DNA of 52,033 nucleotides, from the NCBI GenBank assembly GCA_965652575.1, contig CBFGWQ010000001.1, positions 1-52,033 on the forward strand. Direction: 5' to 3'. The notes under the pieces are model-generated. The model was given only the letters and a program-made list of their open reading frames with translations. It made no database searches and was not told where the DNA came from. This stretch comes from an uncultured Arenibacter sp. (GTDB lineage Bacteria; Bacteroidota; Bacteroidia; Flavobacteriales; Flavobacteriaceae). Made by a program: the position numbers and the translations under genes. Positions 27,259 to 51,802 of this stretch are shown piece by piece; position 1 is the first letter of the stretch; every line of letters begins with the position of its first letter.

Positions 27259-27561
27259 TAGTAGTTGTTAAAATTAGTTAAAATAAAATGGCGATACATT
27301 ATTTTTATGAAAACCGAAGGTCTTTTGTATTGAAAATCAATTAATAACAATTCCACATTACCTCTTTTGATAATTAATCATAATTCCACTACCCGGGTCG
27401 CAAGGAAATCCAAAGTTAAGGGCCTTATAAACAAACATAGAAGTGTTAAACATGACCCCATATTTTTTTAAAAACATCTACGATGTATAATTTCTTATAT
27501 TAGGGGCCATCGGTAAGAAACGGATCAATACCTTTTACCGTAAAAGCAAACATAAACCCCT

Positions 27562-29439: not shown

Positions 29440-29462
29440 CCCATTTGGGAGTGGATGCCGTA

Positions 29463-30311: not shown

Positions 30312-30466
30312 CTTAAAAATTTTTATCAATCATTAATACTAAAGAAGTTGACACACGATTATTTGATATTGGATTTCAATAAAAATAAGGTTTTATAAGT
30401 ATTTATAGGATAAAAATCTTCCTGACAATAACCCAAGCTGAGCATTCTACTTTTTCAACTCAGAAA

Positions 30467-30748
30467 CTATTCGTACCGGCACAAATAGGAGGTTTGGCCT
30501 ACCGACTTCACCTTGAAGGAACTCTGAGCGGCTACTTTAAAAGAAGTACCGGCCTTAAAAGATTGCCATTCGGATTCCCCCGGCAACAAAGCAATTAATT
30601 CCCCTTCCACCACTATCATGGTTTCCTTGGAAGAGGTACCAAATTCATACTCCCCTGGTTCCATTACGCCTATGGTCGATTTTCCACTGGCCGAGGTATA
30701 CCCCAAGGATTTTACAGTTCCATCAAAATATTCATTGCTCAAGATCAT
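30467..30748 (-). CDS. ppnP: Pyrimidine/purine nucleoside phosphorylase (DUF1255)
   Basis: NEYFDG.VKS, GVM.PGEYEFGT...E.M.V..G, YLC.Y; 93-aa cupin. Confidence 0.92.
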   Translation of the reverse strand: MILSNEYFDGTVKSLGYTSASGKSTIGVMEPGEYEFGTSSKETMIVVEGELIALLPGESEWQSFKAGTSFKVAAQSSFKVKSVGQTSYLCRYE

Positions 30749-30773
30749 AAATTTATTTTTATTGCATAGCCCA

Positions 30774-30781
30774 CAAATATA
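30774..30781 (-). promoter_or_regulatory. -7 promoter element of ppnP
   Basis: TATATTTG on the minus strand, about 25 nt upstream of the ATG. Confidence 0.6.
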
Positions 30782-30924
30782 AAAAAAGGAAGTTCGGAAT
30801 AGTTATAATCATCATATTTTTAAATGTACCAACCCTCCAATTTGCACTGCCACCATTTCGTTCACAAGAGAATGGTTTTTAACAACTTTGGAGTATCTTT
30901 AAGTAATCTTTATTTATAATAAAA

Positions 30925-31629
30925 ATGAGAATAATTATTGTCCTATTGGTGCTAATTTCATGGGAAACAAGAACCCAAAATCCAATTGCCGAACCTAACG
31001 ATTATTTAAAGGAAATCAAAAAAGAGCTAAAAATAGAATGGCCCAATAACCGGACGATCAATCTAGTATTCCATGGGCATTCGGTTCCTGCCGGCTATTT
31101 TAAGACCCCTGTTGTAAACACCCTGGATGCCTACCCTTTTCAAGTACTGAAAGGAATAAAGGAACACTACCCCCATGCCGTAATCAACATAATCAATACC
31201 TCCATTGGGGGAGAGAATTCTGTTAGCGGCGCGGAACGATTTGAGGCCGGGGTCCTCATACATAGGCCCGATGTACTTTTCTTGGACTACGCCCTAAATG
31301 ATACGGGAATTGGTCTTGAAACGTCCTATGAAGCATGGCATTCCATGATCGGTAAGGCCTTGGACCAAAAAATTAAAATAATCCTCCTGACCCCTTCCCC
31401 GGACCAACGGATAAACATTATGGAAACAGATAATGTATTGGGCCAGCACCAAAAACAGATCCGGAAATTGGCCATGGAAAATGGGATTGGACTAGTGGAT
31501 AGCTACACCTTATTTAAAGAAAAAGCAGTTGCAGGCGATAGCATTTCGAAATATATGTCCCAGGTAAACCATCCCAATAAGGAAGGCCACAAGCTCATTG
31601 CCGATGAAATCCTTACCTATTTTCAATAA
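30925..31629 (+). CDS. SGNH/GDSL hydrolase (putative carbohydrate esterase)
   Basis: FHGHSV (block I), GGENS, YALND, QVNHPN..GH; signal peptide. Confidence 0.88.
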   Translation: MRIIIVLLVLISWETRTQNPIAEPNDYLKEIKKELKIEWPNNRTINLVFHGHSVPAGYFKTPVVNTLDAYPFQVLKGIKEHYPHAVINIINTSIGGENSVSGAERFEAGVLIHRPDVLFLDYALNDTGIGLETSYEAWHSMIGKALDQKIKIILLTPSPDQRINIMETDNVLGQHQKQIRKLAMENGIGLVDSYTLFKEKAVAGDSISKYMSQVNHPNKEGHKLIADEILTYFQ

Positions 31630-31660
31630 TGAACGGAACATGGGAACAAACACCTCGGAA

Positions 31661-32491
31661 ATGAAAATCAGGGAAATTTTAATTTTAGGAATCTTTTTAT
31701 GTGTTAGCCTATCGTGTAGGGCCAACGAGCGCTGTACTTTTAAAGTACTTGCATTCTACACCGCCAAAAATGACGCTGCCCACATCAGTTTTGTTAGAGA
31801 GGCCAATACATGGTTCTCCAAAACAGGGCACAAATTTAATTTTTGCTACGAAGCTACCGATAATTGGAACCTTTTAAACGAGGAATACCTTTCAGCTTAT
31901 CAAGTCGTAATATTTCTGGATACACGCCCAGAAAATCCATTGCAAAGGTCGGTCTTTGAAAAGTATATGAAAAATGGTGGCGGTTGGTTGGGATTCCATT
32001 TTTCGGCTTTTGCGCTGTCCCCTTCCTCCTATCCGAATAACTGGGATTGGTACCAAAATTCGTTTTTGGCCTGTGGGGCATACTCTGGCAATACTTGGAG
32101 ACCTACGGCCGCAACTCTTAAAGTGGAGAACAGGGACCATCCCATTACCCGAAAATTTCCTAAAAAAATAAAATCCACCCCAAATGAATGGTACAAATGG
32201 GAAAAAGACCTTCAGACCAATACGGACATTGAAATTCTTTTATCGATCCACCCCAAAAGTTTTCCACTGGGAACAGGGCCGAAACCCCATGAAATATGGC
32301 ATAGTGGATACTATCCCGTAGTATGGACCAATAAAAAGTATAGAATGGTGTACTTTAACATGGGACATAACGATATTGACTACGAAAACGGAACCCATGA
32401 AGAACTGTCCCTTACCTTTGGCAAAGAGGACCAGAACAGACTAATATTGAATGCCCTATTATGGGCGGGGAAAAGGAATGTAAAAACATGA
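31661..32491 (+). CDS. ThuA-like exported protein (start reassigned; 31640 also possible)
   Basis: GGGWLGFH, NEWY, YPVVW, Y.NMGH; signal MKIREILILGIFLCVSLSC. Confidence 0.82.
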   Translation: MKIREILILGIFLCVSLSCRANERCTFKVLAFYTAKNDAAHISFVREANTWFSKTGHKFNFCYEATDNWNLLNEEYLSAYQVVIFLDTRPENPLQRSVFEKYMKNGGGWLGFHFSAFALSPSSYPNNWDWYQNSFLACGAYSGNTWRPTAATLKVENRDHPITRKFPKKIKSTPNEWYKWEKDLQTNTDIEILLSIHPKSFPLGTGPKPHEIWHSGYYPVVWTNKKYRMVYFNMGHNDIDYENGTHEELSLTFGKEDQNRLILNALLWAGKRNVKT

Positions 32492-36769: not shown

Positions 36770-37768
36770 TTAATCTGTAATAATAAAATTTAAAAAATCC
36801 GGGCTGTTCCATTGCCGGTATGCCCCTGTAGTGTCCTCTACCATAAACACCTCCAAGTCTGTAGTTTCCCGGACAACTTTCCTACCTTCCCCAATTCCCA
36901 AAACACTTAGGGCAGAGGCATAGGCATCTGCCATGGTCCCATTGGGTGCTATAACCGTTACTTGGATATTATTGCTCAATGCAATGCCGCTTTTAGGGTC
37001 GACTATATGTGAATATCGCTTCCCATCTATAACGGAATACTGATATAGGTCCCCTGATGTGGCTACTGCCCGATTTTTAAGCTTTACCTTTTGGAATACC
37101 TCTTCCCCGTTTTCATTGAAATAACTAAAACCTAAAATCCAAAACTCCTTATTGGGCGGAGCCCCACTCACGGTAACGTCCCCACCCATATCTACCAATG
37201 CCGACTTTATACCGTTTCTTTTCAACAAGTTTATAGCCTCGTCCGCAGCAAATCCCTTTCCTATCCCCCCGACATCCAATTGCATTCCCTCTTGCTTTAA
37301 CCTTACCGTATTTATATATGGGAATTCTAAATTGCTATGACCGGTTCTCTGTTGAGCGGACCTTATTTCGGCCATTGAAGGAACTTGCCTATTTTTCCTG
37401 GCTTTTTTCCATAGTTCAATGAGCGGCCCCAGGGTAATATCAAAAGCACCGGAGGTCCTTTTGGCATAATCCCCTGAAATATTCATGAGGCGAAATAAAT
37501 CCGTACTTACTACCACATCCCTATTTGGCTTTTTACCAAGCCGGTTAATTTCGCTTTGCGGAAGGTAATTACTTAATATACCGTTCAGCTCATCGATCCT
37601 CTTGAATACCAATTGCGCTATGGAATCTGCCCTGGCCTTATCTTTTTCATAAAAGACAAGACCTATTTGGGTGCCCATTTGTTGGTGGGAATACTCATAC
37701 CTGGTTTGGGCGAAGCATGTAAAACAAAAGACATAAAACAAAACAACAATTGGAATACGGTAAATCAT
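36770..37768 (-). CDS. apbE: FAD:protein FMN transferase
   Basis: MGT, GAFDITLGPL..LW, LDVGGIGKG, DMGGD, AVATSG, RYSHIVDP, ADAYASA; signal peptide. Confidence 0.93.
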   Translation of the reverse strand: MIYRIPIVVLFYVFCFTCFAQTRYEYSHQQMGTQIGLVFYEKDKARADSIAQLVFKRIDELNGILSNYLPQSEINRLGKKPNRDVVVSTDLFRLMNISGDYAKRTSGAFDITLGPLIELWKKARKNRQVPSMAEIRSAQQRTGHSNLEFPYINTVRLKQEGMQLDVGGIGKGFAADEAINLLKRNGIKSALVDMGGDVTVSGAPPNKEFWILGFSYFNENGEEVFQKVKLKNRAVATSGDLYQYSVIDGKRYSHIVDPKSGIALSNNIQVTVIAPNGTMADAYASALSVLGIGEGRKVVRETTDLEVFMVEDTTGAYRQWNSPDFLNFIITD

Positions 37769-37785
37769 ATAGCTACTAAGTAATC

Positions 37786-37887
37786 AGTAAACTACCTCGG
37801 TGCAAGCACACGAGGCATTGGTCGGAAACATATTTTTAATTTCGAGGCAAGCCTCGGGGCATTATACCCTTTGGCGGTGCCAGTAAA
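37786..37887. mobile_element. Non-autonomous palindromic element (MITE/REP-like) bounded by AGTAAA
   Basis: Two GCAA-loop hairpins CCTCG.TGCAAGCA.CGAGG and CGAGGCAAGCCTCG, terminal TGGC..GCCA hairpin, AGTAAA at both ends. Confidence 0.6.
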
Positions 37888-37899
37888 TTACTTGCGAAT

Positions 37900-39336
37900 T
37901 TACTGTATACTGTCCACAATGGTGTCCTTCTCTATAAACTCTGTTTTGAATTCCGGGTCAATGCCATGGTCTATATGCAAATTGGGAATAGCTTCCCTTA
38001 GTTTGGAAAGTCCGGAATCGGACAGTTTTGTCTCCCAAACATATAAACTGTTAAGACTCTTTAGGCCCTTCAGAACGGCCACACTTTCATCGGTAATACC
38101 GGTTTCATATGCCTTGAGGACCCTGAGATTTGCAAGCTCCGTTAATTTTACAAACTCGGCATCCGTGATGGGGGTACGGTCTACTTCCAACCATTCCAAA
38201 TTTTTGCACATTGCCACAAATTCCATTTCCTTTTCTCCGATAGGAATTCCACTCAGATCCAACTCCACAATATTGTTGGCAATCCGCTTTAAATCCGTAA
38301 TGTTCTTCGGGTCGTATTCTGGTGGCAGGTAGACGGATATGCCCAGCGCCTGTGAATTACTGGCAATCCTTTTTATGGTAACATAATCCGAAGCCAAATT
38401 TAGTATAGTGCTATCCGCTACTTTGGGAAGTTTTGCCCATGAATTCTTATTTCCTGAATCCATTATTTTCATGACCATTCCTGCCAAGGGTTCGCCACTG
38501 TCCAAATGGCTCAACTTTAAAGTGTCCGAAGCCCCCAAGGCTATCCAGCGTTCCAATATCTGTATTTCATTTTCGGACAGAGGTTTCTTGCCATCAGGAG
38601 GCATATGCTCCTCGTCTTCCTTTGGCAAATGTAAACGTCTAATGATTTCGCTTTTCCCTGGATCCCCGACCACCAAGGCCGGTCCACTTTCACCGCCTTG
38701 AACAAGCTCGCTTATACCGGTCATCAACAGCTCCCCTTTTTTCTTGTTCGGATTATGGCAGCCTATACAATTATTATCCAATATTCGGTGTACTATATGT
38801 TCATAAATCAAGGGATCTTCGGGAATCTTTTCCAGTTTCTTACTTCTTGGCAAGGCCAAAAAATCTTCCCCATGGGTAATCATTCCGCCATAATGGCCAG
38901 TGAACCCTACCAAAATAATCAATATCACCTGGATTCCTTTCACCAAATACGTCTGCTGTAAATGATTGGTACTCACCCAATACCAGAGAACTGCCAAAAT
39001 AGCCACTCCGGCCCCCATCCATTGGTGCCATAAAAGAAGACTGCCTTTTGGTACGGCCTCATTTCCCAAGAAAAAACCGGTTATGGCGGTAACCAAGGCA
39101 GAGATGGTAGCAATGGTAAGCAAGGGCTTGGGCACCATTCTATTAAAAAGCCCTAGCGCGGCAGACATCAACAAAAGCACTATGGGAAAATGCAAAATTA
39201 ACGGATGCCAACGCCCCAACCAGGCTACAAGACCGGGAAGATCAATAAAGGATTCGAATATTAAACAAAAAATAAGAAATACGGTAAGACCGAAGATAAC
39301 ATAATCGACCCAGGGAGAACTATTTTTTTGAGCCAT
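37900..39336 (-). CDS. Membrane protein: DUF2231-like TM domain + planctomycete cytochrome c + LRRs (copy 2)
   Basis: GRWHPLILHFP, WHQW, TGHYGG.ITHG, CIGCH, HMPP, WI..GA, LxxLxL repeats. Confidence 0.85.
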   Translation of the reverse strand: MAQKNSSPWVDYVIFGLTVFLIFCLIFESFIDLPGLVAWLGRWHPLILHFPIVLLLMSAALGLFNRMVPKPLLTIATISALVTAITGFFLGNEAVPKGSLLLWHQWMGAGVAILAVLWYWVSTNHLQQTYLVKGIQVILIILVGFTGHYGGMITHGEDFLALPRSKKLEKIPEDPLIYEHIVHRILDNNCIGCHNPNKKKGELLMTGISELVQGGESGPALVVGDPGKSEIIRRLHLPKEDEEHMPPDGKKPLSENEIQILERWIALGASDTLKLSHLDSGEPLAGMVMKIMDSGNKNSWAKLPKVADSTILNLASDYVTIKRIASNSQALGISVYLPPEYDPKNITDLKRIANNIVELDLSGIPIGEKEMEFVAMCKNLEWLEVDRTPITDAEFVKLTELANLRVLKAYETGITDESVAVLKGLKSLNSLYVWETKLSDSGLSKLREAIPNLHIDHGIDPEFKTEFIEKDTIVDSIQ

Positions 39337-39339
39337 ATA

Positions 39340-40800
39340 CTATGTTAAGATATCATTTACAACATTGCCCGCCACATCTGTGAGTCTAAAGCGACGGCCC
39401 TGATATTTATAAATTAATTGTTCGTGGTCCAATCCCAGATTATTCATAATAGTGGCATGGAAATCGTTGATATGAACCGGGTTTTTTACAATATTATAGC
39501 CAAACTCATCCGTTTCCCCATAGGTAATGCCCGGCTTTATACCGCCCCCGGCCATCCATATACTAAAGGCCCTGGGGTGATGGTCCCTACCGTAATTTTT
39601 TGGATCAAAGTTTCCTTGGCAATAATTGGTCCTTCCAAACTCCCCGCCCCATATAACCAAGGTATCCTCCAACATGCCACGTTGTTTCAAATCCAGAATC
39701 AGGGCCGCGGAAGCCTGATCCACATCCTTGGCCTGGCCTGCCATTTCATTGGGCAGATTGCCGTGCTGGTCCCACCCCTGATGGTACAACTGAATAAAAC
39801 GGACCCCATTCTCTGCAAGTCTACGGGCCTGCAGGCAATTGGCGGCATAAGTGCCGGGAATCTGGGAATCTTCCCCGTATAATTTTATTATGGATTCCGG
39901 TTCTTTTTTGATATCCATAACATCGGGTACGGACATCTGCATTCTATAAGCCATTTCATACTGGGCGATCCTTGATTCTATCTCATCATCCCCGGTCTCA
40001 ACATGATGGATTTTGTTCAAGGAGGATACGTGATCCAATAAATGCCTTTTATCGGAACGGGAAAGTCCGTCCGGATCGTTCAAATATAAAACAGGATCTT
40101 TTCCGGAGCGCAATAGTACCCCCTGGTGCTTGGAATCCAAGAATCCGCTGGACCATAACTTGGAATACAGCCCTTGGCTATTGCCCTTTCCCCTGGAGGT
40201 AAGCACCACAAAGGAGGGCAGGTTCTGATTTTCACTTCCCAGACCATAACTCATCCAGGATCCCATACTTGGGCGACCCGATTGCTGGCTTCCTGTTTGA
40301 AAAAAGGTAATGGCCGGATCATGGTTTATGGCCTCGGTATGCATACTTCTAACAATACAGATCTCATCCGAAATTTTGGCGATATGCGGAAAAAATTCAC
40401 TTACCCAGGCACCGCTTTTACCATGCTGGGCAAATTTGGCCGCAGAAGGCATTAAGGGAAATTTATCCTGCCCTGCGGTCATACCCGTAAGCCGTTGCCC
40501 ATTCCTAATAGATTCCGGCAGATCTTCGCCCATCCGCTTTGTAAGGGTCGGTTTATAATCAAAGGATTCCAACTGTGACGGTGCCCCGGATTGGAACAAA
40601 TAAATTACCCTTTTCGCCTTGGGGGCAAAATGGGGAATTCCCAATGGCTGGGCCGCCAAGGGTTTGGGACCACCTTTAAAAAGGTCGGGGATCAACAAAG
40701 ACCCCAAAGCCAATGAGCCGATTCCCACACTCAATTGGGAGAAGAAATGTCTTCGGTTTACCTTTAGGGGATTTTCAGAATTTAACTTGTCTTCCTCCAT
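39340..40800 (-). CDS. DUF1501 family Tat-exported protein (copy 2)
   Basis: NRRHFF; PKAKRVIYLFQSGAPSQ, INHDPA, GWDQH, WGGEFGRT, GRDHH. Confidence 0.9.
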   Translation of the reverse strand: MEEDKLNSENPLKVNRRHFFSQLSVGIGSLALGSLLIPDLFKGGPKPLAAQPLGIPHFAPKAKRVIYLFQSGAPSQLESFDYKPTLTKRMGEDLPESIRNGQRLTGMTAGQDKFPLMPSAAKFAQHGKSGAWVSEFFPHIAKISDEICIVRSMHTEAINHDPAITFFQTGSQQSGRPSMGSWMSYGLGSENQNLPSFVVLTSRGKGNSQGLYSKLWSSGFLDSKHQGVLLRSGKDPVLYLNDPDGLSRSDKRHLLDHVSSLNKIHHVETGDDEIESRIAQYEMAYRMQMSVPDVMDIKKEPESIIKLYGEDSQIPGTYAANCLQARRLAENGVRFIQLYHQGWDQHGNLPNEMAGQAKDVDQASAALILDLKQRGMLEDTLVIWGGEFGRTNYCQGNFDPKNYGRDHHPRAFSIWMAGGGIKPGITYGETDEFGYNIVKNPVHINDFHATIMNNLGLDHEQLIYKYQGRRFRLTDVAGNVVNDILT

Positions 40801-40805
40801 AATCG

Positions 40806-43148
40806 TTATTCTTTGGTAATTGTTTCATCAAGATTGTAGATTACCTGTGCCGTAAGCATCAGTGCGGCCGTCTTTGCCGGATCCGTATCCAAACTTTTAT
40901 ATTCTCCCTGGGCCACCAATTTTTCGGCATTCTCCTTTTCGTTCAAGAACTTTTCCAGGGCATCGGTATAATATTCCTCCAAGACCTTTTTTTCCTCCTC
41001 CTTGGGATTCCTCACCAAGATACGCCGAAATACTGTGGTAACCCACATTTCAGCATCCCTGGTATCCGCAATGGTATTTTCTGCCAACACCCGGGCCGCC
41101 TCCAACATTTGAACATCGTTCTGTAGTGCCAGGGCCTGTAAAGGGGTATTGGTCTTTTGCCTCCTTACCTCACAGATATCCCTATTGGGCGCATCAAAAA
41201 TGGACATGCTGGGCGGTGGCAAGGTCCGTTTCCATAAGGTGTACAGTGAACGTCGGTACAATTTATCGCCTTCATCGGCAATATAGGTGGTAAGCACCCC
41301 CCTATTGCCCCCGGCGTTGGTCTCTTCCCATAGCCCCGGGGGCTGGTACGGTTTTACGCTGGGACCGCCGATCTCCCTGTTCAATAAGCCACTGGTGGCC
41401 AGAACATAGTCCCTTATGATCTCCCCGCTCATCCTGAACCTTGGGGCCCTGGATAGCCACTTGTTGTCCGGGTCCGACTTTTTGGACTCCTCAGTAGCTA
41501 TGGAACTTTGCTGATAGGTAGCGGACAGCATTATTTTCTTCAGCAGATATTTTATGTCCCAACCGTGTTCCATAAAATCCTTGGACAACCAATCCAATAA
41601 TTGGGGGTGACTGGGCAGACTGCCCTGAACCCCGAAATCCTCAGAGGTTTCCACAAGTCCGTTCCCGAACACCATTGCCCATACCCTGTTCACGAAGACC
41701 CTAGAGGTCAACGGATTGTTTTCATCGGTCACCCATTGGGCCAGTCCCAATCTGTTCTTTGGGAGCTTTTCCGAGAAAGGAAGTATTATTTCCGGGGCAT
41801 TGGGGGTTACCTCCTCCCCGGGACTGTCATACTCCCCTCTGTTGAAAATATAGGTTGTCCTCGGCATGGAATCGTTCATCACCATCACTTTAACATCTTC
41901 CCCTTCGGACTTATTGATAAAGGATAGCACCCCATTGGTCTCCTCATCGGTAATGGTCATAAAGGGGGCGTCCGCAAAATATTTCTGATTGGCAGCCTGC
42001 ACGGCATCCATACGCAGCCCCATCTCGTTCACATTATTGAAAAAGGAATAGATCTCGTAATAATCCTTTTGGGACAGCTGATCGTACTTGTGATCATGGC
42101 ACTTGGCACATTCCAGGGTAAGGCCCAATATACCCTTCCCCAAAGTATTGGTACGGTCCACTACATAATAGGACTGGTATTCCTCCTGGATAACACCGCC
42201 TTCCTGTGTAATGGGATGGTTCCTATTGAACCCGGTGGCCAGCACCTGTTCCTTAGTGGCATTGGGCATAAGGTCGCCCGCCAATTGCACCTTTAGGAAC
42301 CCATCATAGGGCATATTATTATTGAAGGCGTGGATCACCCAGTCCCGCCAGGGCCACATACTCCTATAACTATCGTCTTGATAGCCATGGGAGTCCGCAT
42401 ACCTGGCCACGTCCAGCCAAACCTGGGTCATACGCTCCCCATAGCTTGGGGAAGCCAAAAACTCATCTATGGCCCGCTCCAATAAATCCTCTGAGGAACC
42501 GGAAAGGTATCTTTCCACCTGCACCGCATTGGGAGGAAGGCCCGTAAGATCCAGACTCATTCTCCTGATCAGGGTATGCTCTTCTGCCCTTGCGGAAGGT
42601 ACTAGCCCGTTCTCCTCCAACTTTTCCAAAATAAAGGCATCGATCTCATTTTGTGCCCAATCGGTACGTTCCGTTTTTGGAATATCCGCTTTCTTAGGAG
42701 GAATAAAGGCCCAGTGTTTTTCGAACTTCGCGCCCTGCTCGATCCATTTTTTCAGCAATTTCTTTTCATAAGAATTCAGTTTCAACTGTGAATCCGGTGG
42801 GGGCATCAGCTGTTTCGGATCATCGGTTACCACATGTTGGTACATTAGGCTGTTACCAGGTTTGCCTGCCACAATGGGGTATTTCCCAGGATTCTCCGGC
42901 AGTTCGGAAAATGCGTTGGATTCCAGATCCAGTCGCAGGCCCGCTTTACGCTTATTGGCATCCGGACCGTGGCAGGTATAGCAATTATCCGAAAGTATAG
43001 GCTTAATATGAAAATTATAATCTACAACCTCAGGTAGTTTCTGGTCGGCATAGCTGTCCTTGGAGGATTTGAAAAACCCCGATTTAATTGCGAACAGCAA
43101 GGCCACCAAACCCAATAAAATTACTACTATACTAAGCTTTTGTCTCAT
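40806..43148 (-). CDS. Planctomycete cytochrome c + DUF1549 + DUF1553 di-haem protein (copy 2)
   Basis: IKPILSDNCYTCHGPD, HWAF, WLDVARYADSHG, CAKCHDHKYD, PSHP.LLDWL, TNTPLQAL. Confidence 0.9.
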   Translation of the reverse strand: MRQKLSIVVILLGLVALLFAIKSGFFKSSKDSYADQKLPEVVDYNFHIKPILSDNCYTCHGPDANKRKAGLRLDLESNAFSELPENPGKYPIVAGKPGNSLMYQHVVTDDPKQLMPPPDSQLKLNSYEKKLLKKWIEQGAKFEKHWAFIPPKKADIPKTERTDWAQNEIDAFILEKLEENGLVPSARAEEHTLIRRMSLDLTGLPPNAVQVERYLSGSSEDLLERAIDEFLASPSYGERMTQVWLDVARYADSHGYQDDSYRSMWPWRDWVIHAFNNNMPYDGFLKVQLAGDLMPNATKEQVLATGFNRNHPITQEGGVIQEEYQSYYVVDRTNTLGKGILGLTLECAKCHDHKYDQLSQKDYYEIYSFFNNVNEMGLRMDAVQAANQKYFADAPFMTITDEETNGVLSFINKSEGEDVKVMVMNDSMPRTTYIFNRGEYDSPGEEVTPNAPEIILPFSEKLPKNRLGLAQWVTDENNPLTSRVFVNRVWAMVFGNGLVETSEDFGVQGSLPSHPQLLDWLSKDFMEHGWDIKYLLKKIMLSATYQQSSIATEESKKSDPDNKWLSRAPRFRMSGEIIRDYVLATSGLLNREIGGPSVKPYQPPGLWEETNAGGNRGVLTTYIADEGDKLYRRSLYTLWKRTLPPPSMSIFDAPNRDICEVRRQKTNTPLQALALQNDVQMLEAARVLAENTIADTRDAEMWVTTVFRRILVRNPKEEEKKVLEEYYTDALEKFLNEKENAEKLVAQGEYKSLDTDPAKTAALMLTAQVIYNLDETITKE

Positions 43149-43369
43149 TAGGGAGCTATATTTTCATTTGTTTAAATTGAAAATGGAAGAATTGCACAAA
43201 CCACTATCTTTAGATAAGATGGCACCTCTCCGTGATTTACATATACTACATTATTTATACTAAAATAACAACATATTTTTGATTAAGCCTGTAAAATTTT
43301 CATAATTAACTTCGCTCAAGGCCGGATTCCGATTATATTACACAATATACACTGAACCATAACCAATTT

Positions 43370-44764
43370 TTACATCCCCACTATTATGGAGGGACGACTT
43401 TCTTTTTCTACAAATCTTGCCGCCTCATCTTCGGTTATTGCCGTTCCCCAAGCGTACACACGTTCCAAACCCTTCATTTTTAGAAAGTTTTCAAAACTGG
43501 ACGCCGTAATTTTAGTTTGATATAAATTGAGTCCGGTCATACTTTGGATTCCCGTTAACTCGGCAATACCTACATCTGTAATAGGATTTTTTTCAATTTC
43601 CAATTTCTGAAGGTTTACAAACTGGCCGATGGTTTTTAAATGCCCGTCCTGCACCTTATTGTCCTTTAATGACAACCACAATATATTAAACTTTAATGGA
43701 AGTAACTTTTCCAGCTTTCCTCCCAGTTCGCCTCCATCCTTGGATGTAATCGACTCCGGAGGCAACACTACCTCGTATAAACCGGATTCAAAAATTAATT
43801 CCCGTATCTTGAAACCTGCGTCTTCAATATCCCTCAAAATTTCTGCATTGACCGCTTCCACCTTGGGCAAGGGAATTCCGCTTTTACCGGTCACATCTTC
43901 CAGACCCAACATGTTGGAGGCTATACTGGTTATATCCTCAGGGGTTTCCAAATCGGCCAGCTTTACCTTGAAATCGGCATTGGCCTTTTCTATCCAAAAC
44001 GACAAAATCAATTTCTCCCCATCGGTAAGGGGGGTCTTGCCTTCAGGCGGCATATAATCCTCATGGTGGGGATCCAACATAACCCGTCTGATCATCTCGG
44101 ACTTGGCGGCATTTCCCGCAATAAAGGCATCACCATTCTTTCCTCCTTTTTTATAGGCAACGGAATCCTGAAAGGAGAGTCCGCCCTTTTTCTTACTGGA
44201 GTTATGGCAACTGATGCATTTGGCTTCCATTATTGGGTTTACCAAATAAGCGTAGACCTCGGCCTCCTCTAATTTGGCTATAGGGGGCAACACTTCCTTT
44301 TCCGTTCTTCCAAATGGGGCATATTTTATCAAATAGTCACTTCCATGAGTTAAATTACCCCCATAGTGACCTGTAACACCTACCAACAGGACCACCAAGG
44401 ATAAGCTGGCCATATTAGATTTTAAACCCTTCAATTTTGGTATATTCAACTTGCCCGAATGTATTGCCGAGGCAAAAAATGCCATTATGGTAGTTGCTAT
44501 TCCAAACCAAAAATGTGTGTCCAGCATAGCCTGTTCATAATCGCCTCCCAAAGAAAGCATATACCCTAGAACACTGGCCACCAATGCACTTATGGCCCCA
44601 CCGAACAAGGCCAAACCAATAACCATGGTCAAGGCCGGATCCCTATGCCAGCGCCCATAGATTTCCAAAAGAAAGGCAAAAATCAAAAACCCAATGGGCA
44701 AGTGCACCACCAATGGGTGAAATCTACCTAAAAACAATATAAAATCCGGTATGTTACTTTCCAT
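43370..44764 (-). CDS. Membrane protein: DUF2231-like TM domain + planctomycete cytochrome c + LRRs (copy 1)
   Basis: GRFHPLVVHLPIG, THFW, TGHYGG.LTHG, CISCH, MPP, LRRs; ATG at 44764. Confidence 0.85.
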   Translation of the reverse strand: MESNIPDFILFLGRFHPLVVHLPIGFLIFAFLLEIYGRWHRDPALTMVIGLALFGGAISALVASVLGYMLSLGGDYEQAMLDTHFWFGIATTIMAFFASAIHSGKLNIPKLKGLKSNMASLSLVVLLVGVTGHYGGNLTHGSDYLIKYAPFGRTEKEVLPPIAKLEEAEVYAYLVNPIMEAKCISCHNSSKKKGGLSFQDSVAYKKGGKNGDAFIAGNAAKSEMIRRVMLDPHHEDYMPPEGKTPLTDGEKLILSFWIEKANADFKVKLADLETPEDITSIASNMLGLEDVTGKSGIPLPKVEAVNAEILRDIEDAGFKIRELIFESGLYEVVLPPESITSKDGGELGGKLEKLLPLKFNILWLSLKDNKVQDGHLKTIGQFVNLQKLEIEKNPITDVGIAELTGIQSMTGLNLYQTKITASSFENFLKMKGLERVYAWGTAITEDEAARFVEKESRPSIIVGM

Positions 44765-44803
44765 TGTCAACTTCCAATACTCCTAAATTATAATACTATT
44801 TTT

Positions 44804-45925
44804 TTAAATCCTTTCCAATTTTATGGGTGCCGTACCATAGGCATTCCACTGACATACATATAAATTTTTGTCCGGATCGACAAAAACATCGTGTCCATGG
44901 TTAAAAATGGGAACATTAGAATTATGCATGGTTTGGAGTTCTCCATTAATATACTTGGGAGCCTCACCGCCGGGATTGGAAATTACCTTGTTTTTTCCAT
45001 CCAGTATGGTTACAAAACCCGTATCCCTGACCCATTTTTCGCCATTCCTTGTTTCCGACCAGCAAACTCCCGAATAGATATTTTCATCATCCAGAACGGC
45101 CCTGCAAACAAAGGCACCGGGCAAGTTGAGGGTTTTGATATATTTTCCATCGAGCGTAAAAAATTTAAAGGCATTTTCCGTTCTTGAAGTTACTATCAAT
45201 ACCGGATTTTTACTATCGCGATAATCCACTGCCACTCCATGGGCATTTACCAAATTGTAATTTTTATCGGTATTGTTTTTACCTCCCCATTTACGAATAA
45301 ATTCCCCCTTATGATTGTACTGAAGAATATAATCCGAACCATAGCCATCGGCCACATAAATATCCCCGTTGGGCCCTACGGCCGTCTCTGTGGGCATATA
45401 AGCTTCCTCCTGTTTATAAACCCCGATGGTATGCGGATGCGGTAAGGGAAAAATGAGGCGCCCGTCAACAGTTGTCTTAAACACCTGTCCGGCCTGTGCA
45501 TGGTATTTTCCGGCTTTATCCACAAAATATCCGCAGTCCACGATATAAAGTACATCTTCCCCTCCTTCGTTATGCAAGGTTAAACCATGTCCTCCCGGAT
45601 AACCAGTACCCCAATAGTCCAATAATTTACCCGACTTATCAAATACCAAAATATTATTTGCCGTATGATCCCCGATCATCAGCAACCTCCCCTTACTGTC
45701 CATTTGCATTTCATGACAATTAAGGATAGGATTATGTGCAGTACTTATCCTTGCCCAATCTTTGTGAACCTTATATCGGAAATCTCCGTGCCCCACTATT
45801 GGATCCTCTTGAAATCCTTTCTTTAAAATGTGAAAACCAAAAGAGGGGGTCGCTGCCAGGGCCGTTCCCAACAATACCGTATTACCTAAAAATTTTCTTC
45901 TAGAATTGTTCATATATCTTTTCAT
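44804..45925 (-). CDS. Tat-exported NHL six-bladed beta-propeller, PAL (peptidyl-alpha-hydroxyglycine lyase)-like
   Basis: SRRKFLG; GHG, VADGY, AHG, TSR.EN and GHD motifs. Confidence 0.8.
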   Translation of the reverse strand: MKRYMNNSRRKFLGNTVLLGTALAATPSFGFHILKKGFQEDPIVGHGDFRYKVHKDWARISTAHNPILNCHEMQMDSKGRLLMIGDHTANNILVFDKSGKLLDYWGTGYPGGHGLTLHNEGGEDVLYIVDCGYFVDKAGKYHAQAGQVFKTTVDGRLIFPLPHPHTIGVYKQEEAYMPTETAVGPNGDIYVADGYGSDYILQYNHKGEFIRKWGGKNNTDKNYNLVNAHGVAVDYRDSKNPVLIVTSRTENAFKFFTLDGKYIKTLNLPGAFVCRAVLDDENIYSGVCWSETRNGEKWVRDTGFVTILDGKNKVISNPGGEAPKYINGELQTMHNSNVPIFNHGHDVFVDPDKNLYVCQWNAYGTAPIKLERI

Positions 45926-45945
45926 TTAATTGAATCCATTTTGAG

Positions 45946-47457
45946 TTAGCTAAGAATATCCCTCACCACATCGCCATGTACGTCGGTAAGTCGATACCTA
46001 CGGCCCTGATGTTTAAAGGTCAATCTTTCATGGTCAATTCCAAAAAGGTGCAATAAGGTAGCCTGGAAATCATGGGTATGTACCGGATCTTTGACAATGT
46101 TATAACTAAAGTCATCGGTCTCACCATATGTAAATCCGGGTTTTACCCCTGCCCCTGCCATGAACATGGTAAAGGCCTTGGGATGGTGGTCACGTCCGTA
46201 ATTTGTTTCCGTAAGCTGCCCCTGGGAATAGACCGTGCGGCCAAACTCTCCGCCCCATACCACTAGGGTATCCTCCAGCATGCCCCGTTGTTTTAAATCC
46301 TTTATCAATGCCGCAGTACCTTGATCCGTATTCTTACTTTGATATTTTACCCCACCGGGGCAATTGCCATGTTGATCCCATCCCTGGTGATACAATTGAA
46401 CAAATTTCACATCCTTTTCCAATAATTTACGTGCCATTAAACAATTTGCGGCATACGTACCCGGATTTCGACTATCGGGCCCGTACATATCAAAAATATA
46501 GTCCGGCTCGTCCGACGTATCCGTAACCTCGGGCACGGAAGTCTGCATTCTATAGGCCATTTCATATTGTGCTATCCTGGCATTAATTTCCGGATCCCCA
46601 AAGGCATCGTAAGCCATCCCATTCAATTTTTTCAAATAATCCAGCATTTGCCGGCGATCATTTCCGTCATAGTTCTCAGGGTCTCCCAAATACAGTACGG
46701 GATCCTTTCCCGAACGGAACTGTACCCCCTGATGTTCGGTCGGCAAAAAGCCATTGCCCCACAGACGGGAGTATAAAGGCTGCCCTGAGCCATTTTTGGA
46801 AACCAAAGAAATAAATGTTGGCAAGTTATCATTGTCCGATCCCAATCCATAACTGATCCAAGAACCAATAGAAGGTCTCCCCGGCTGTTGGCTCCCCGTT
46901 TGAAAAAAGGTTATGGCCGGATCATGGTTAATGGCGTCGGTATGCATCCCTTTAATAAAGCACAGGTCATCCACAATCTCTGACAAATAGGGCATAGCCT
47001 CACTGACCCAGGCCCTGGATTCCCCGTACTGTTTAAAATTTAAGGTAGATGCAGCAATAGGAAAAGCGGTCTGATCGGCGCTCATCCCCGTTAGGCGCTG
47101 CCCGGCCCTAATGGAATCCGGTAAATCCTGACCAAACATATCCTTCAGTTTGGGCTTATAATCGAACAGATCCAATTGTGAAGGGCCACCACTTTGAAAA
47201 AGGTATACAATACGCTTAGCCTTGGGCAAATGATGCGGCAACCCCAATTTATTTTTGGCAATAGAATTTAAAGAATTATTGGGATCGGCAACGGGACCAA
47301 CAGCGCTCCAAAGCTTTTCCGACTGCAATAAGGAGCCAAGGGCCATAGCTCCCAGGCCCAAAGAAGTCTTTTTAAAGAACTCCCTTCTATCCCATTGTTT
47401 TTCAATACTTTGAAGATCCCGATTGTTGGATCTTAATTTATCATGATGATCGCACAT
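45946..47457 (-). CDS. DUF1501 family Tat-exported protein (copy 1)
   Basis: DRREFFK; GGPSQLDLFDYKP, INHDPA, GWDQH, WGGEFGRT, GRDHH. Confidence 0.9.
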   Translation of the reverse strand: MCDHHDKLRSNNRDLQSIEKQWDRREFFKKTSLGLGAMALGSLLQSEKLWSAVGPVADPNNSLNSIAKNKLGLPHHLPKAKRIVYLFQSGGPSQLDLFDYKPKLKDMFGQDLPDSIRAGQRLTGMSADQTAFPIAASTLNFKQYGESRAWVSEAMPYLSEIVDDLCFIKGMHTDAINHDPAITFFQTGSQQPGRPSIGSWISYGLGSDNDNLPTFISLVSKNGSGQPLYSRLWGNGFLPTEHQGVQFRSGKDPVLYLGDPENYDGNDRRQMLDYLKKLNGMAYDAFGDPEINARIAQYEMAYRMQTSVPEVTDTSDEPDYIFDMYGPDSRNPGTYAANCLMARKLLEKDVKFVQLYHQGWDQHGNCPGGVKYQSKNTDQGTAALIKDLKQRGMLEDTLVVWGGEFGRTVYSQGQLTETNYGRDHHPKAFTMFMAGAGVKPGFTYGETDDFSYNIVKDPVHTHDFQATLLHLFGIDHERLTFKHQGRRYRLTDVHGDVVRDILS

Positions 47458-47490
47458 ATCCTCCTGTTTAATGCTGTTTTCCTTAAATTA

Positions 47491-50400
47491 TCATCTTTTG
47501 GTGATACAGGCATCCGCATTCATAATGGTATTGGCCACCACCGCATTGGCGGCTACCAAAGCCTTGTTATCCCCGCTGTCCAATGTAAACTCACCTGTAT
47601 TTAGCCAACCTTTGGCCCTTTCCAGATTGGCCTCGAATTTTTTGTATTCATTCTGTTGAAGCTCAACCAATAATTGCAGCTCATCCTGCTTAATTTTCCT
47701 CCCGGTAAGCTGTCTGAAAACATTGGAAATCCCCAATTTCAAATCCCCCGAATCAACCATACGTTTGCCCAAGACTCTGGATGCCTCAATGTAAGTGGGA
47801 TCATTGAGCAACACCAAAGCTTGTAGCGGGGTATTGGTTTCCTGTCGCTGTATGGTACATACATCCCTCGCGGGAGCATCAAAAGTGGCCAAGGTAGGAT
47901 GTGGCACGGAACGTTTCCAAATAGTGTACATACTTCTTCGGTACAGTTTTTCCCCGGTATCCTGCCTGTAGGTGGCATTGTTCACCCTCCAAAGCCCTTC
48001 CGGTTGATAGGGGCTTACGCTTTCACCTCCTATGGTCTTGTTCAACAATCCCGAACCGGCCAGGGCGTTATCGCGCAACATCTCTCCGGACAGTCTTTTC
48101 GAAGGTCCTCTTGCCAAAAGTCGGTTATCGCTATCCATTTCCATCAATTCTTCACTTACCATTGATGACTGTTGATAGGTATGCGACATCACTATCAATT
48201 TCTGAAATGCCTTAACATCCCATCCCGAGTCCCTAAATTGCAGGGCCAACCAATCCAGTAATTTGGGGTGACTGGGCATTTCGCCCTGATTCCCAAAATC
48301 TTCCGAAGTCTTTACCAGGCCAAACCCAAAATAGTGCTGCCAAAACCTGTTCACCGCCACTCTTGCCGTAAGGGGATGATCCTCGTGAAACAACCATTTG
48401 GCAAATCCCAGTCTATTTTTTGGATAGTCTTCCGGCATGGGCAAAATGGCTTTAGGGGTATTGGGAAATACTTCCTCGCCCCTTGCATTGTATACGCCCC
48501 TATCCAAAATGTAGGACGGCACCGGTTCCGGGGTCTCCTCCATAACCATTACCTCTTTTACCTTTTCCACACTATCCACATAACCCTTGCGTAATTCTGC
48601 CAATTTTCGGTGCTGTAATCTGGTGGTTTGGGAAACCGATTTCAAATAGTGTTCCCACAATAATTCTTTATCCAGGGACCCAAGGCCGGCGACCTCTTTC
48701 TTTATCAATTCATTCAACTGAAGATCGTTTGCAAGTTGCATTACCTCAAGACCGGACAATTCCCTTTCATATACCCTTATCTCATCTACTACAGCTCCTT
48801 TTATTCCTTTCCCCCTTAGCCTTGCCCCCAATTGAAGCCCCGGTTCGTTATTGTTTCTAAAAAGAATATCCTTGTACAGATTATCGGTCTTTACTACAGT
48901 CTCCATTTCCTTGCCATCAACGAACAACCTAAACCCTTCCGCCTTACTGGAACCATCATAGGTAATGGCAAAATGTACCCATTGGTCCCGTGGAAACGTA
49001 TTTTTGGAAATTTCTACGATGGCATTGTTGGGCGCCGTATGGGCCATCATCAGCTCCAACCTGTTGTCCACGATCTTAAGGTGATATCCGCGCCAATTGT
49101 ACAAAATGGCCCCATCGCCCTTATGAAAAATATTCCCGTTCCCAATATTTGAGGGTATATTGGCCCATAATCCTATACTGAAGGCATCATTTCTTCCGAA
49201 AACACCTGTTTTTCTCAAATCCAGCCAAGTATCCCCATCCAGCAATACCCCCTTGCCCTGTTTTCCATCGGAAAGGTTTATTTTTTGTCCTTCATTACCT
49301 TCCCGTTTCATGGTGCCCCTTTGCTTTGGATCGATGGCATTTTGCAAACCCTGATCATTTAGATCGAAGTAGGCCGTTAATCCGTTGGAAGGAATTTGCT
49401 TTCCAATGGACCTATATTGCTTATCCGCCAGCCATTTATCAAAATTGTCGGCCACTTCCTGCTGTTCCTGCCTTTTGATTTCCCCTTCTACGTCATTAAT
49501 TAAGCCCTCCATATAGGCCAATACCTTTTCCTCCTCTTCCGTGGTCATCATCAAGGTAGGAACCGGGGTGGCATCGTTCCAGGAAATCTGTCCCGATTCG
49601 TTCACGTTATTAAAAAAACTAGTGAGCTCATAGAAATCCTTATGCGATATGGGATCGTATTTGTGGTCGTGACATCTGGCACAGGCTACGGTCAGCCCCA
49701 TAAACGCCTGCCCGGCCGTACTGGCCCGGTCTACGGCATATTCCACCAAAAACTCCTCATTTACAATACCCCCTTCCATATTTTGTGGATGAACGCGGTT
49801 GAAGGCCGTGGCCAAGATAGTTTCCCGAGTGGGGTTTTCAATTAGGTCCCCTGCCATTTGCCAGGTAACAAACTGCTCATAGGACATATTTTTGTTGAAA
49901 GCATCAATTACCCAATCACGCCAAGGGGACATATCGCGATATCTATCCACACTATATCCGTGAGTATCGGCAAAACGGGCCAAGTCCATCCAATCCAGGG
50001 CCATTTGCTCCCCATAATGGGGAGAGGACAATAATTTGTCCACTACTTTTTCGTAGGCCCTTGGCGAAGTATCCTCTATAAAAGAATCCATTTCCTCCAA
50101 AGTTGGCGGTAATCCGATCAGATCCAGATACAATCTCCTCAATAATAATTCCTTATCCGCTTTGGGAGAGAACTGCAATTTATCCTGTTCCAAACGTGCC
50201 AACACAAAATTATCGATAGGGTTCCGCACAAGGCCTGCCTTGTCCTGGACTTTTGGCACCTCATAGGCCATAGGCTTAATAAATGCCCAATGATCTTTAT
50301 ATTCGGCACCTTGTTCTATCCATTTTATCAACACCGCCTTCTCATGGTCGGACAGGGAAAGATGGGAATCGGGTTCCGGCATTACATAGTTGGGATCGTT

Positions 50401-50715
50401 TGAAATAATTCTATGGAACACCTCGCTTTTATTTAAACTTCCGGGCTTTAAAGCAAACTTTCCCGGTGACTCCCCAAGCTCCTTATAAGCTGCTTCCGGG
50501 GTATGCAATTGGAGGTCGGCCTTTATTTTTGCCTTATCGGGACCATGGCATATAAAGCATTTATCCGAGAGGATGGGCTTTACATGCAGATTAAAATCTA
50601 CTTTCTCAGGTAATTTATCGTATTCAAGGGATACCAGTTCGGGTATATCCGGACCTCCACAAGAAAATAATAATAAAATCCAGCAAAAAACTAAAAGATT
50701 CTTAATAATTACCAT
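47491..50715 (-). CDS. Lipoprotein: planctomycete cytochrome c + DUF1549 + LamG/ConA-like insert + DUF1553 (copy 1)
   Basis: LFSC lipobox; CFICH and CARCH; FSIGLW, WVHFAITYDG, LFVDG, VDEIRVYER.LS; TNTPLQAL. Confidence 0.9.
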   Translation of the reverse strand: MVIIKNLLVFCWILLLFSCGGPDIPELVSLEYDKLPEKVDFNLHVKPILSDKCFICHGPDKAKIKADLQLHTPEAAYKELGESPGKFALKPGSLNKSEVFHRIISNDPNYVMPEPDSHLSLSDHEKAVLIKWIEQGAEYKDHWAFIKPMAYEVPKVQDKAGLVRNPIDNFVLARLEQDKLQFSPKADKELLLRRLYLDLIGLPPTLEEMDSFIEDTSPRAYEKVVDKLLSSPHYGEQMALDWMDLARFADTHGYSVDRYRDMSPWRDWVIDAFNKNMSYEQFVTWQMAGDLIENPTRETILATAFNRVHPQNMEGGIVNEEFLVEYAVDRASTAGQAFMGLTVACARCHDHKYDPISHKDFYELTSFFNNVNESGQISWNDATPVPTLMMTTEEEEKVLAYMEGLINDVEGEIKRQEQQEVADNFDKWLADKQYRSIGKQIPSNGLTAYFDLNDQGLQNAIDPKQRGTMKREGNEGQKINLSDGKQGKGVLLDGDTWLDLRKTGVFGRNDAFSIGLWANIPSNIGNGNIFHKGDGAILYNWRGYHLKIVDNRLELMMAHTAPNNAIVEISKNTFPRDQWVHFAITYDGSSKAEGFRLFVDGKEMETVVKTDNLYKDILFRNNNEPGLQLGARLRGKGIKGAVVDEIRVYERELSGLEVMQLANDLQLNELIKKEVAGLGSLDKELLWEHYLKSVSQTTRLQHRKLAELRKGYVDSVEKVKEVMVMEETPEPVPSYILDRGVYNARGEEVFPNTPKAILPMPEDYPKNRLGFAKWLFHEDHPLTARVAVNRFWQHYFGFGLVKTSEDFGNQGEMPSHPKLLDWLALQFRDSGWDVKAFQKLIVMSHTYQQSSMVSEELMEMDSDNRLLARGPSKRLSGEMLRDNALAGSGLLNKTIGGESVSPYQPEGLWRVNNATYRQDTGEKLYRRSMYTIWKRSVPHPTLATFDAPARDVCTIQRQETNTPLQALVLLNDPTYIEASRVLGKRMVDSGDLKLGISNVFRQLTGRKIKQDELQLLVELQQNEYKKFEANLERAKGWLNTGEFTLDSGDNKALVAANAVVANTIMNADACITKR

Positions 50716-50742
50716 GCCAAAACTATCTAATTACTGCCTTTT

Positions 50743-50750
50743 CAAAGATA
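50743..50750 (-). promoter_or_regulatory. -7 promoter element of the DUF1553/DUF1501 operon
   Basis: TATCTTTG on the minus strand, 27 nt upstream of the ATG at 50715. Confidence 0.65.
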
Positions 50751-50929
50751 AAATTTAAGGAATCATAATATTCATCCAAATCAGTTTAAGTATTGCACAT
50801 TTCCGACATAAATACTCTTCTTATTACTGTTCCTAAATACATTATTTGCTAATTTAGCAGTGAATCATTTCATTTTTAAATAAAAACATATTGGATACCA
50901 CTGTACCAAATCCGACAAATCCTTGAGAC

Positions 50930-51802
50930 ATGTCCAAAATTCTTCAATCCCTAAAATTAGCTTTATTAAATGTAGGTTATGCAAAACTTGGCCCGCTATG
51001 GGATTATGACGATGTTATCAGCCCCTTTGTCAGACTCTATTATATTACCAAAGGAAACGCTATGATCTATCACAATAATGAAGCCATCGAATTGAAACCA
51101 GGTCATATATATCTAATTCCCAGCTATACTTTTGGCAGATATAAATGTGATGTATACCATGAGCAATACTACATCTGTTGCTTGGAAGAACTAAAAAATG
51201 GCTATTCCATTTTCAATTATGGCCATTTTATTTACGAGTTGGAAGCAAACCCCATGGATCCGTATTATTTTAAACGTCTCTTGGAAATAAATCCAAATAG
51301 GCAATTGGAAAACTATAACCCAAAAGTTTATGACAACAGGCCTACACTTATGGATTTTGAAAAGAAGAACGAAGAATTAAGTCCTTCCGCTTATATGGAG
51401 ACCCATGCCATTTTGGGGATATTGTTGTCCAGATTTATAAAGAATCCCAAATCCGAATCCGTAAAGAGTAATGTAAAAAAGGAATTTGGCATGGTCCTTA
51501 ATTATATCCATGAAAATCTCCACGAAAATTTAAGCGTAAAACGATTGGCCGACTTCTGCCATTTGAACACCGATTACTTTTCCAGGGTCTTCAATGAAAA
51601 TTTTGGCATGCGCCCCAATAAATATATCCAATCCAAACGTATTGAAAGGGCCCAATTATTATTGCTCTCCACCAACAATTCCCTAAAGCAGATTGCGGAA
51701 AAAGTGGGATTGGAAAATCTTTCCTATTTTACAAGAATATTTAAAAACCATACGGGTAAGACGCCTGGAGTTTTCAGGGAGAATCAATTGGAAAACAAAT
51801 AG
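50930..51802 (+). CDS. AraC family transcriptional regulator (cupin + HTH), divergent
   Basis: RLYYITKG...LKPG..YLIP, LA..CHL..DYFSR.F, IAEKVG...SYF.R.FK..TG.TP. Confidence 0.95.
   Translation: MSKILQSLKLALLNVGYAKLGPLWDYDDVISPFVRLYYITKGNAMIYHNNEAIELKPGHIYLIPSYTFGRYKCDVYHEQYYICCLEELKNGYSIFNYGHFIYELEANPMDPYYFKRLLEINPNRQLENYNPKVYDNRPTLMDFEKKNEELSPSAYMETHAILGILLSRFIKNPKSESVKSNVKKEFGMVLNYIHENLHENLSVKRLADFCHLNTDYFSRVFNENFGMRPNKYIQSKRIERAQLLLLSTNNSLKQIAEKVGLENLSYFTRIFKNHTGKTPGVFRENQLENK

Follow-up and report, generated by a model that had tools for sequence, protein, structure and literature searches.

A Bacteroidota variant of the DUF1501–DUF1549/DUF1553 module in Arenibacter, with membrane and PAL-like propeller partners

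Introduction

What do the two adjacent gene sets found in a contig of an uncultured Arenibacter sp. do, and do they act as one system? The window analyzed here is the entire contig (52,033 nt). Each set encodes a protein with two CxxCH haem motifs and the domains PSCyt1-DUF1549-DUF1553 (A), a DUF1501 protein (B) and a membrane protein composed of DUF2231, PSCyt1 and leucine-rich repeats (LRR) (C); the first set also contains a propeller (NHL). The module is real and strongly conserved, and the locus represents a Bacteroidota version of a system that was published without a function. We give an even chance to the further reading that each copy is a periplasmic oxidase, wired to the membrane, for a glycan-derived substrate on which the PAL-like propeller then acts as a lyase, a proposal built from domain content, conserved residues and genomic context.

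DUF1501 together with PSCyt1/PSCyt2/PSD1 has been described as a "conserved genetic module" of Planctomycetes, Verrucomicrobia and Lentisphaerae (Kamneva et al. 2012, PMC3542564; He et al. 2017, PMC5615132). The available text of the former includes a few Bacteroidetes and suggests that the module serves a membrane-targeted transfer of electrons to proteins or sugars, that of the latter describes both module types and suggests a role in carbohydrate metabolism, and the available portions of PMC11495043 and PMC6004670 add no function for the module. The Arenibacter locus shares with the published module, as far as the accessible text describes it, the adjacent core genes and their domains, the twin-arginine translocation (Tat) signal on DUF1501 and the optional Laminin_G_3 insert: in the window, A adjoins DUF1501 with Pfam matches over cut-off and gaps of 33 and 5 nt, DUF1501 carries the signal, and an insert of the Laminin_G_3 type is present. 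Relative to that description, the Bacteroidota form adds the DUF2231-PSCyt1-LRR membrane gene and a PAL-like Tat propeller, whereas the four-gene type of PMC3542564, in its available text, uses PPC and PSCyt1/WD40 genes; supplementary figure S14 of that paper may show Bacteroidetes loci. A literature search on DUF2231, on DUF1501 with DUF1553 and on bacterial PAL-like proteins, with most subscription papers outside its coverage, returned no account of the C or NHL partners.

Two old copies of a conserved module

Nine open reading frames make up the locus. Eight lie on the minus strand in the order A1, B1, NHL, C1, A2, B2, C2 and ApbE, and the sequence bears out the layout given in the initial annotation, namely two co-oriented copies with the same gene order, six CxxCH motifs, three twin-arginine signals and gaps of 3–33 nt. 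Intergenic gaps measure 33, 20 and 33 nt in copy 1 and 5 and 3 nt in copy 2, while 221 nt separate the two copies, 131 nt lie before ApbE and 214 nt before the AraC gene. A scan for promoters and terminators remained at chance level (45 vs 38.2 and 18 vs 20.6). The genome encodes both TatC and a cytochrome c assembly gene.

The module had been called duplicated; the two copies and their shared gene order stand, and a recent duplication does not. Identity between the copies is 48–50% for A1/A2, 59% for B1/B2 and 30% for C1/C2, and a quick tree built from 80 B rows places B1 and B2 in different supported clades, each spread across several Bacteroidota families. A recent tandem duplication is ruled out by this divergence and by the separate clades; judged by these comparisons, the copies are old paralogues whose tandem arrangement is incidental. 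The genome holds seven A loci, seven B loci (tblastn), seven DUF2231 loci and one NHL, along with eight hidden Markov model matches to DUF1501. All 24 other genomes of the genus contain DUF1501 (2–14 matches each), and among 20 stretches from the genus nine have the two copies in tandem, in some cases with a further A2 gene, and four have copy 2 alone, in another setting. In two genus genomes a tandem pair of A2 genes accompanies a single B2 (L037:6797-11799, L045:8844-13747), and in another the place of copy 1 is taken by a transposase-like gene and a remnant of C1 (139 aa; L049:7909-9557). In other modules of the Arenibacter genome, the slot between B and C is taken by a xylose-isomerase-like TIM barrel or an arylsulfotransferase-like propeller (L001:10803-11702, L004:3495-4439).

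The wider context was described from 80 loci, the best among 598 confirmed in GTDB genomes, a sample that is biased towards B2 relatives, includes some short contigs and comprises 69 Bacteroidota loci (by record title) and 11 others. The three-gene order is kept elsewhere, as had been predicted: A was found in 65, C in 45 and NHL in 24 of the Bacteroidota loci, and A in 10 of the remaining 11, with neither C nor NHL among these. Across 200 Flavobacteriaceae genomes, DUF1553 was detected in 45, DUF2231 in 64 and the propeller in 41. DUF2231 was present in 43 of the 45 genomes with DUF1553 vs 21 of the 155 others, and one of the two DUF1553-bearing genomes without a match does carry a C gene missed by Pfam. 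COX1 occurs in all 17 module-bearing genomes of a phylum sample and in 226 of 250 overall, and is thus uninformative on a link to aerobic life only.

The DUF1501 protein

B1 (45946–47457, minus strand, 503 aa) and B2 (39340–40800, minus strand, 486 aa) each begin with a twin-arginine RR-x-F signal followed by DUF1501. H160, W343, D344, H346, E387 and H407 (B2 numbering) are invariant in 111 of 111 B rows, which supports the earlier proposal of a putative metal-type site in this protein. Single-sequence methods gave no solved relative for B1 and a fold too poor to use (predicted local distance difference test, pLDDT, 34), and in an Atlas comparison of B2, DUF1552 leads at 0.79-0.81. Profile alignment of DUF1501 to 13 sulfatases (hhalign, 94.8%), an alignment of ENPP4 with B (E 0.039) and weak Sulfatase and Phosphodiest matches in Pfam point, at the level of sequence, to the alkaline phosphatase superfamily, for the core fold as well as the metal-ligand positions. 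The likeness to sulfatases and nucleotide pyrophosphatases lies at the level of the fold and of the D-x-H, E/D and distal His metal positions. The differences concern the nucleophile, where DUF1501 has His instead of Cys/Ser/Thr, and its surroundings: H160 aligns exactly with the catalytic Cys of sulfatases, and DUF1501 reads H-D-P-A-I where sulfatases have C-A-P-S-R, QSG where they have SDD and GEFG where they have SDHG, so that neither the signature C/S-x-P-x-R nor the first-strand Asp is found. With His at the nucleophile position, DUF1501 is not a canonical sulfatase.

These comparisons introduce another reading, in which DUF1501 would be a non-redox hydrolase or a sulfo- or phosphotransferase with H160 as covalent nucleophile, and the haem proteins would serve as scaffold, redox sensor or metal-reducing helper. 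The superfamily fold and the register of H160 speak for it, as do the unchanged motifs of DUF1501 proteins whose DUF1800 partners have no haem motif, the presence of sulfatases in 17 of 17 module-bearing genomes (115 of 250 overall), and an arylsulfotransferase-like gene within or beside two modules (L004, L156); in arylsulfate sulfotransferases the nucleophile is a His residue. However, such a role leaves unexplained three conserved haem motifs and a membrane domain, rich in His, whose fusion to two module types arose independently, and the sulfatase first-strand Asp pair, Cys/Ser and CxPxR Arg are all missing. In addition, DUF1553 has no match in 14 control genomes, which include the sulfatase-bearing Bacteroides thetaiotaomicron. 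We regard this alternative as unlikely.

The di-haem protein

A1 (47491–50715, minus strand, 1074 aa) has the Pfam architecture PSCyt1-DUF1549-LamG-DUF1553, with a lipoprotein-type signal (LFSC19), a CxxCH at residue 53 in PSCyt1, a second one at residue 345 in DUF1549 and a LamG/ConA-like lectin insert at residues 493-658 ahead of DUF1553. A2 (40806–43148, minus strand, 780 aa) has the same domains in PSCyt1 (CxxCH 56, M115), DUF1549 (CxxCH 347) and DUF1553 without the lectin insert, and starts with a hydrophobic N-terminal segment that contains no lipobox Cys. All 148 of 148 A rows keep both CxxCH motifs and M115, so the motifs are not chance occurrences; with an exported CxxCH, an invariant Met and an assembly gene in the genome, the attachment of c-type haem is predicted. 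The first A domain resembles the haem domains of FoxE and hydrazine synthase, and no solved relative was found for A2 by single-sequence search or for the A core. The family is very large, with 53,207 clusters at 50% identity.

A and B diverge together: over 78 pairs their divergences correlate with rho 0.78, to which kinship contributes, and the best of 500 shuffles reached 0.18. In loci L037-L046, B2 orthologues are 96–99% identical where A2 is 85–97% identical. This pairing bears on a second alternative, that A is a maturase which oxidatively modifies H160 or W343 of DUF1501, as MauG, MbnH or FGE do for their targets, and that the modified DUF1501 is the working enzyme. One-to-one pairing and co-divergence would fit, H160 occupies the position that FGE modifies in sulfatases, the invariant W343 adjoins a metal ligand, and FGE-like genes lie upstream of copy-2 orthologues. 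A also resembles MauG and MbnH in its two CxxCH motifs, its export and its dedicated partner gene. It differs from them in being about twice as long, in its helical DUF1549/1553 core and in its lectin inserts, and neither A1 nor A2 matches CCP_MauG in Pfam or NCBIfam, whereas true MauG-like neighbors elsewhere do. A as a member of the MauG/MbnH family is thereby ruled out, and the maturation alternative put forward in the initial annotation fails as family membership. The broader maturase reading has further points against it, as the core has no solved relative, real MauG/MbnH-like genes sit separately beside some modules (L109, L116, L140), and the lectin inserts in A point to contact with a substrate. 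We judge it quite improbable.

The membrane protein and its natural fusions

C1 (43370–44770, minus strand, 466 aa; the likelier start is the ATG at 44764) combines a DUF2231 four-helix membrane domain (H18, H23, H86, H135, H142) with PSCyt1 (CxxCH 185, M240) and LRR. C2 (37900–39336, minus strand, 478 aa) has an additional N-terminal helix, a His-rich membrane domain of the DUF2231 type, PSCyt1 (CxxCH 190) and an LRR-like C-terminal part. Among 55 C rows, H23, H86, H135, H142 and the CxxCH are invariant and H18 is kept in 54; H23 and H86 are present in all 76 rows when stand-alone DUF2231 proteins are included. If the cytochrome lies outside, all five His residues of DUF2231 would be on the periplasmic side, and no His was found near the cytoplasmic face. 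Weak Ni_hydr_CYTB matches were obtained in two of nine cases. The HP and HxWxG motifs of DUF2231 are presumably akin to those of cytochrome b561, a likeness that a profile search did not confirm, and an Atlas comparison yielded nothing usable for this membrane domain.

Natural fusions link the membrane gene to the A–B pair, in agreement with the earlier claim. In the same genome, a single chain with the order DUF2231-PSCyt1-DUF1549-DUF1553 lies beside a DUF1501 gene (L003:1873-6174, G000:C117), and the DUF2231 membrane domain is common to 120 of 120 listed relatives of this fusion. Eight of eight long DUF2231 frames (two Pfam-checked) join this DUF2231-PSCyt1 front end to the sister PSCyt3/DUF1552 module. 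Of the evidence for C working with A and B, these fusions are the strongest. A model of the L003 fusion predicts a four-helix bundle (pLDDT 70, predicted template modelling score 0.43), with low confidence near both haem motifs; fold searches with it matched the lectin insert and the membrane bundle only and were hardly a test of the DUF1549/1553 core.

The PSCyt3/PSD2-5 and DUF1552 sister module (supplement of PMC5615132) likewise pairs a large haem-motif protein with a Tat protein, which our comparisons relate to DUF1501. In Flavobacteriaceae it shares the DUF2231-PSCyt1 front end and differs in its core domains and in the FucP gene that comes next. Eight Flavobacteriaceae loci (L137-L144, e.g. 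L138:5698-12047) show DUF2231-PSCyt1 with PSD3/PSD5/PSD4/PSCyt3/PSD2, then DUF1552 and a FucP permease (one permease Pfam-checked); a propeller gene is next in five and a MauG-like gene in two. These loci represent a candidate fucose-linked sister system.

The propeller and the carbohydrate context

NHL (44804–45925, minus strand, 373 aa), the only copy in the genome, is a PAL-like six-bladed propeller with a twin-arginine RR-x-F signal. PAL itself is an NHL propeller with three Zn-binding His and a catalytic Tyr and Arg. H71, H113, Y195, H229, R248 and H345 are invariant; Y195 aligns with the DGY Tyr of rat PAL (HMMER), and the invariant His and Arg residues correspond to those of PAL by motif only. 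The match to PAL scores 6e-14, but TRIM propellers score higher. The propeller was found in 41 of 45 DUF1553-bearing Flavobacteriaceae vs none of the 155 others and, in the phylum sample, in 13 of 17 module-bearing genomes. The suggestion of a putative PAL-like lyase in the module gains support, in that PAL-type residues are kept and the propeller tracks the module across genomes. Within the genus the propeller is dispensable. In one case (L181:6454-8303), a signal-less propeller homologue lies directly behind PhyH-type dioxygenase and BNR-repeat genes, a possible cytoplasmic hydroxylase-lyase pair.

Several features connect the module with carbohydrates. The insert of the L003 fusion is a rhamnose-type carbohydrate-binding module (Z 20.7, root-mean-square deviation 1.8 over 155 aligned residues, vs a domain of glycoside hydrolase family 78), A1 contains the LamG lectin insert, and long forms of C contain CHB_HEX_C and F5/8 domains. 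FucP and RhaT directly adjoin related modules, and relatives of the L003 fusion (L153-L155) adjoin RhaT, rhamnosidases and a PAL-like propeller. The sulfatases in 17 of 17 module-bearing genomes (115 of 250 overall) count towards this link as well. Carbohydrate-related genes, assigned by hand, account for 41 of 132 flanking genes vs 11 of 125 control genes, which came from 20 stretches chosen arbitrarily in module-bearing Flavobacteriaceae (about 3.5-fold, odds ratio 4.7), with the reservations that kin are not independent and that control and test genomes differ; without three split-off module parts and with five related SIS genes collapsed, the values are 34 of 125 and an odds ratio of 3.9.

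The sugar-related neighbors raise a third alternative, in which the module would be an aldose dehydrogenase feeding the respiratory chain and the propeller a lactonase rather than a PAL-type lyase. Genes of oxidative sugar catabolism are indeed found near modules: SDR and FAA-hydrolase genes follow copy-2 orthologues, an ILVD/EDD dehydratase and a flavin mononucleotide-dependent L-lactate dehydrogenase are further neighbors, FucP and RhaT fit the same picture, and 14 of 24 propellers weakly match the SGL lactonase family. However, these neighbors are lineage-specific, the propeller keeps the PAL-aligned Tyr and an invariant Arg, and A and B contain no known dehydrogenase cofactor fold. This role, too, seems improbable to us.

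Proposed mechanism

In the membrane-wired oxidase reading, B would be exported folded via Tat and bind metal through D344/H346/H407 and H160/E387. A would bind B one-to-one, with the lectin insert, where present, bringing the substrate and the two c haems relaying electrons. C may dock on A through its LRR and move electrons between its haem c, of the His/Met type, and a cofactor with His ligands, probably a single haem b at H23/H86, which would exchange with the respiratory chain near the periplasmic membrane face. The A–B site would oxidize a C-H bond adjacent to N or O, yielding a carbinolamide or hemiacetal that the propeller would split; AraC would induce copy 1. As to direction, quinol-driven hydroxylation with O2 seems to us slightly likelier than dehydrogenation that feeds the chain. 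The menaquinone used by Flavobacteriaceae has a low potential and His/Met c haems usually have a higher one, a difference that favors electrons moving outward and the use of O2. The product of hydroxylation would also arise from dehydrogenation with subsequent hydration.

A number of observations weigh against this proposal. The known redox-cofactor folds (flavin, nicotinamide adenine dinucleotide, pyrroloquinoline quinone, molybdopterin) are not present in the module, and C was not found in 24 of the 69 Bacteroidota loci, nor in any of the 11 others. In two of two pairs, DUF1501 proteins keep their His/Asp/Glu motifs beside DUF1800 partners without CxxCH, so the chemistry of DUF1501 need not depend on c haem; homology of DUF1800 to the A profile was not shown (probability 5%). 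The propeller is missing from 11 of 24 other genus genomes, all with DUF1501, and from 9 of 11 copy-1 loci (present in two), and six of 19 propeller-bearing genomes in the phylum sample have no DUF1553; five of these six had their propellers read for a signal, and none showed a twin-arginine motif. About two thirds of the genes flanking modules are not carbohydrate-related, and the window's own flanks (an M20 amidohydrolase, with YceI and FGE-like genes in relatives) name no substrate. For DUF2231, a profile search gave no significant solved relative, the structural matches of the membrane bundle to CcmF (Z 11.6) and cytochrome b561 (4o6y, Z 10.1) are within generic helix-bundle scores, and the haem-b assignment is putative and unproven.

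The membrane domain also admits the reading that DUF2231 delivers haem or metal and is not an electron wire, the gene set being an assembly line for the A–B cofactors. Its five His residues are predicted on one face, its best natural membrane-protein structural match is the CcmF segment, and short stand-alone DUF2231 genes occur without any module. In modules, however, DUF2231 is always followed by a His/Met-type cytochrome c, and the CcmF score does not rise above helix-bundle noise; we consider delivery very improbable.

Animal peptide amidation employs the hydroxylase PHM, the lyase PAL and cytochrome b561. The oxidase module resembles this system in its PAL-like propeller (Tyr and His/Arg pattern), its four-helix His-rich membrane domain and an implied exported upstream oxidant; it differs in having no PHM homologue, in its putative hydroxylase, which would be an unrelated haem c/alkaline-phosphatase-fold pair, and in a b561 likeness that is not significant. 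That Bacteroidota built a periplasmic counterpart of the animal machinery from unrelated parts, with a single-haem b561-like domain drawing on menaquinol, a c-haem chain, a new His-rich metal center in an alkaline phosphatase fold that hydroxylates C-H bonds with O2 and a shared PAL-type lyase, is a speculative extension that we hold doubtful. If it were true, this system and the DUF1552 sister module would make up a class of enzymes new to science that modify glycans oxidatively and number tens of thousands of sequence clusters.

Neighboring genes and the rest of the window

The AraC-family regulator (50930–51802, plus strand) is divergent from A1 and flanks it in 11 of 11 genus loci; full-length homologues with 41-47% identity flank four of 11 non-genus members of the B1 clade. 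Since AraC is conserved with copy 1 only and copy 2 is found without it, the suggestion of one complete inducible system is not supported.

The gene for the flavin transferase ApbE (36770–37768, minus strand) is co-oriented with the module and had been counted as one of its components. It follows C2 in 14 of 17 genus loci but occurs in 1 of 69 Bacteroidota loci. ApbE attaches flavin at the acceptor motif [ST]GA[ST], which was found in none of the seven module proteins and none of four neighbors of relatives. As a module part ApbE is rejected on these grounds; it travels with YceI and FGE-like genes and looks like a bystander. Upstream of copy-2 orthologues, YceI genes and genes for an FGE-like lipoprotein are conserved, in some cases along with ApbE (L048:6150-7757, L057:2-2550), and no flavinylation motif was seen.

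Elsewhere in the window, positions 32-2731 encode a pair of a 2Fe-2S subunit and a molybdopterin-binding oxidoreductase. A polysaccharide utilization locus at 2976-18589 contains a hybrid two-component sensor, SusC/SusD, GH130 and a major facilitator superfamily transporter, along with two proteins (822 and 587 aa) that have no Pfam or NCBIfam match. Positions 18857-32491 hold two sulfatases, a resistance-nodulation-division efflux operon, two ThuA genes and a GDSL esterase. The module as part of the upstream SusCD/GH130 locus is ruled out, as the two are >19 kb apart with unrelated genes between them.

Significance

Aerobic glycan degraders carry the A family in abundance, and no function has been assigned to it since it was first described. 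The compact Bacteroidota form is single-copy in many cultured Flavobacteriaceae and comes with membrane and lyase-like partners and a dedicated regulator, which makes the question directly testable. If the oxidase reading is true, a redox enzyme in an alkaline phosphatase fold with His at the nucleophile position would represent new chemistry, and it could supply a missing oxidative step in the degradation of glycans from algae and plants. A very large uncharacterized protein family gains a concrete reaction to test.

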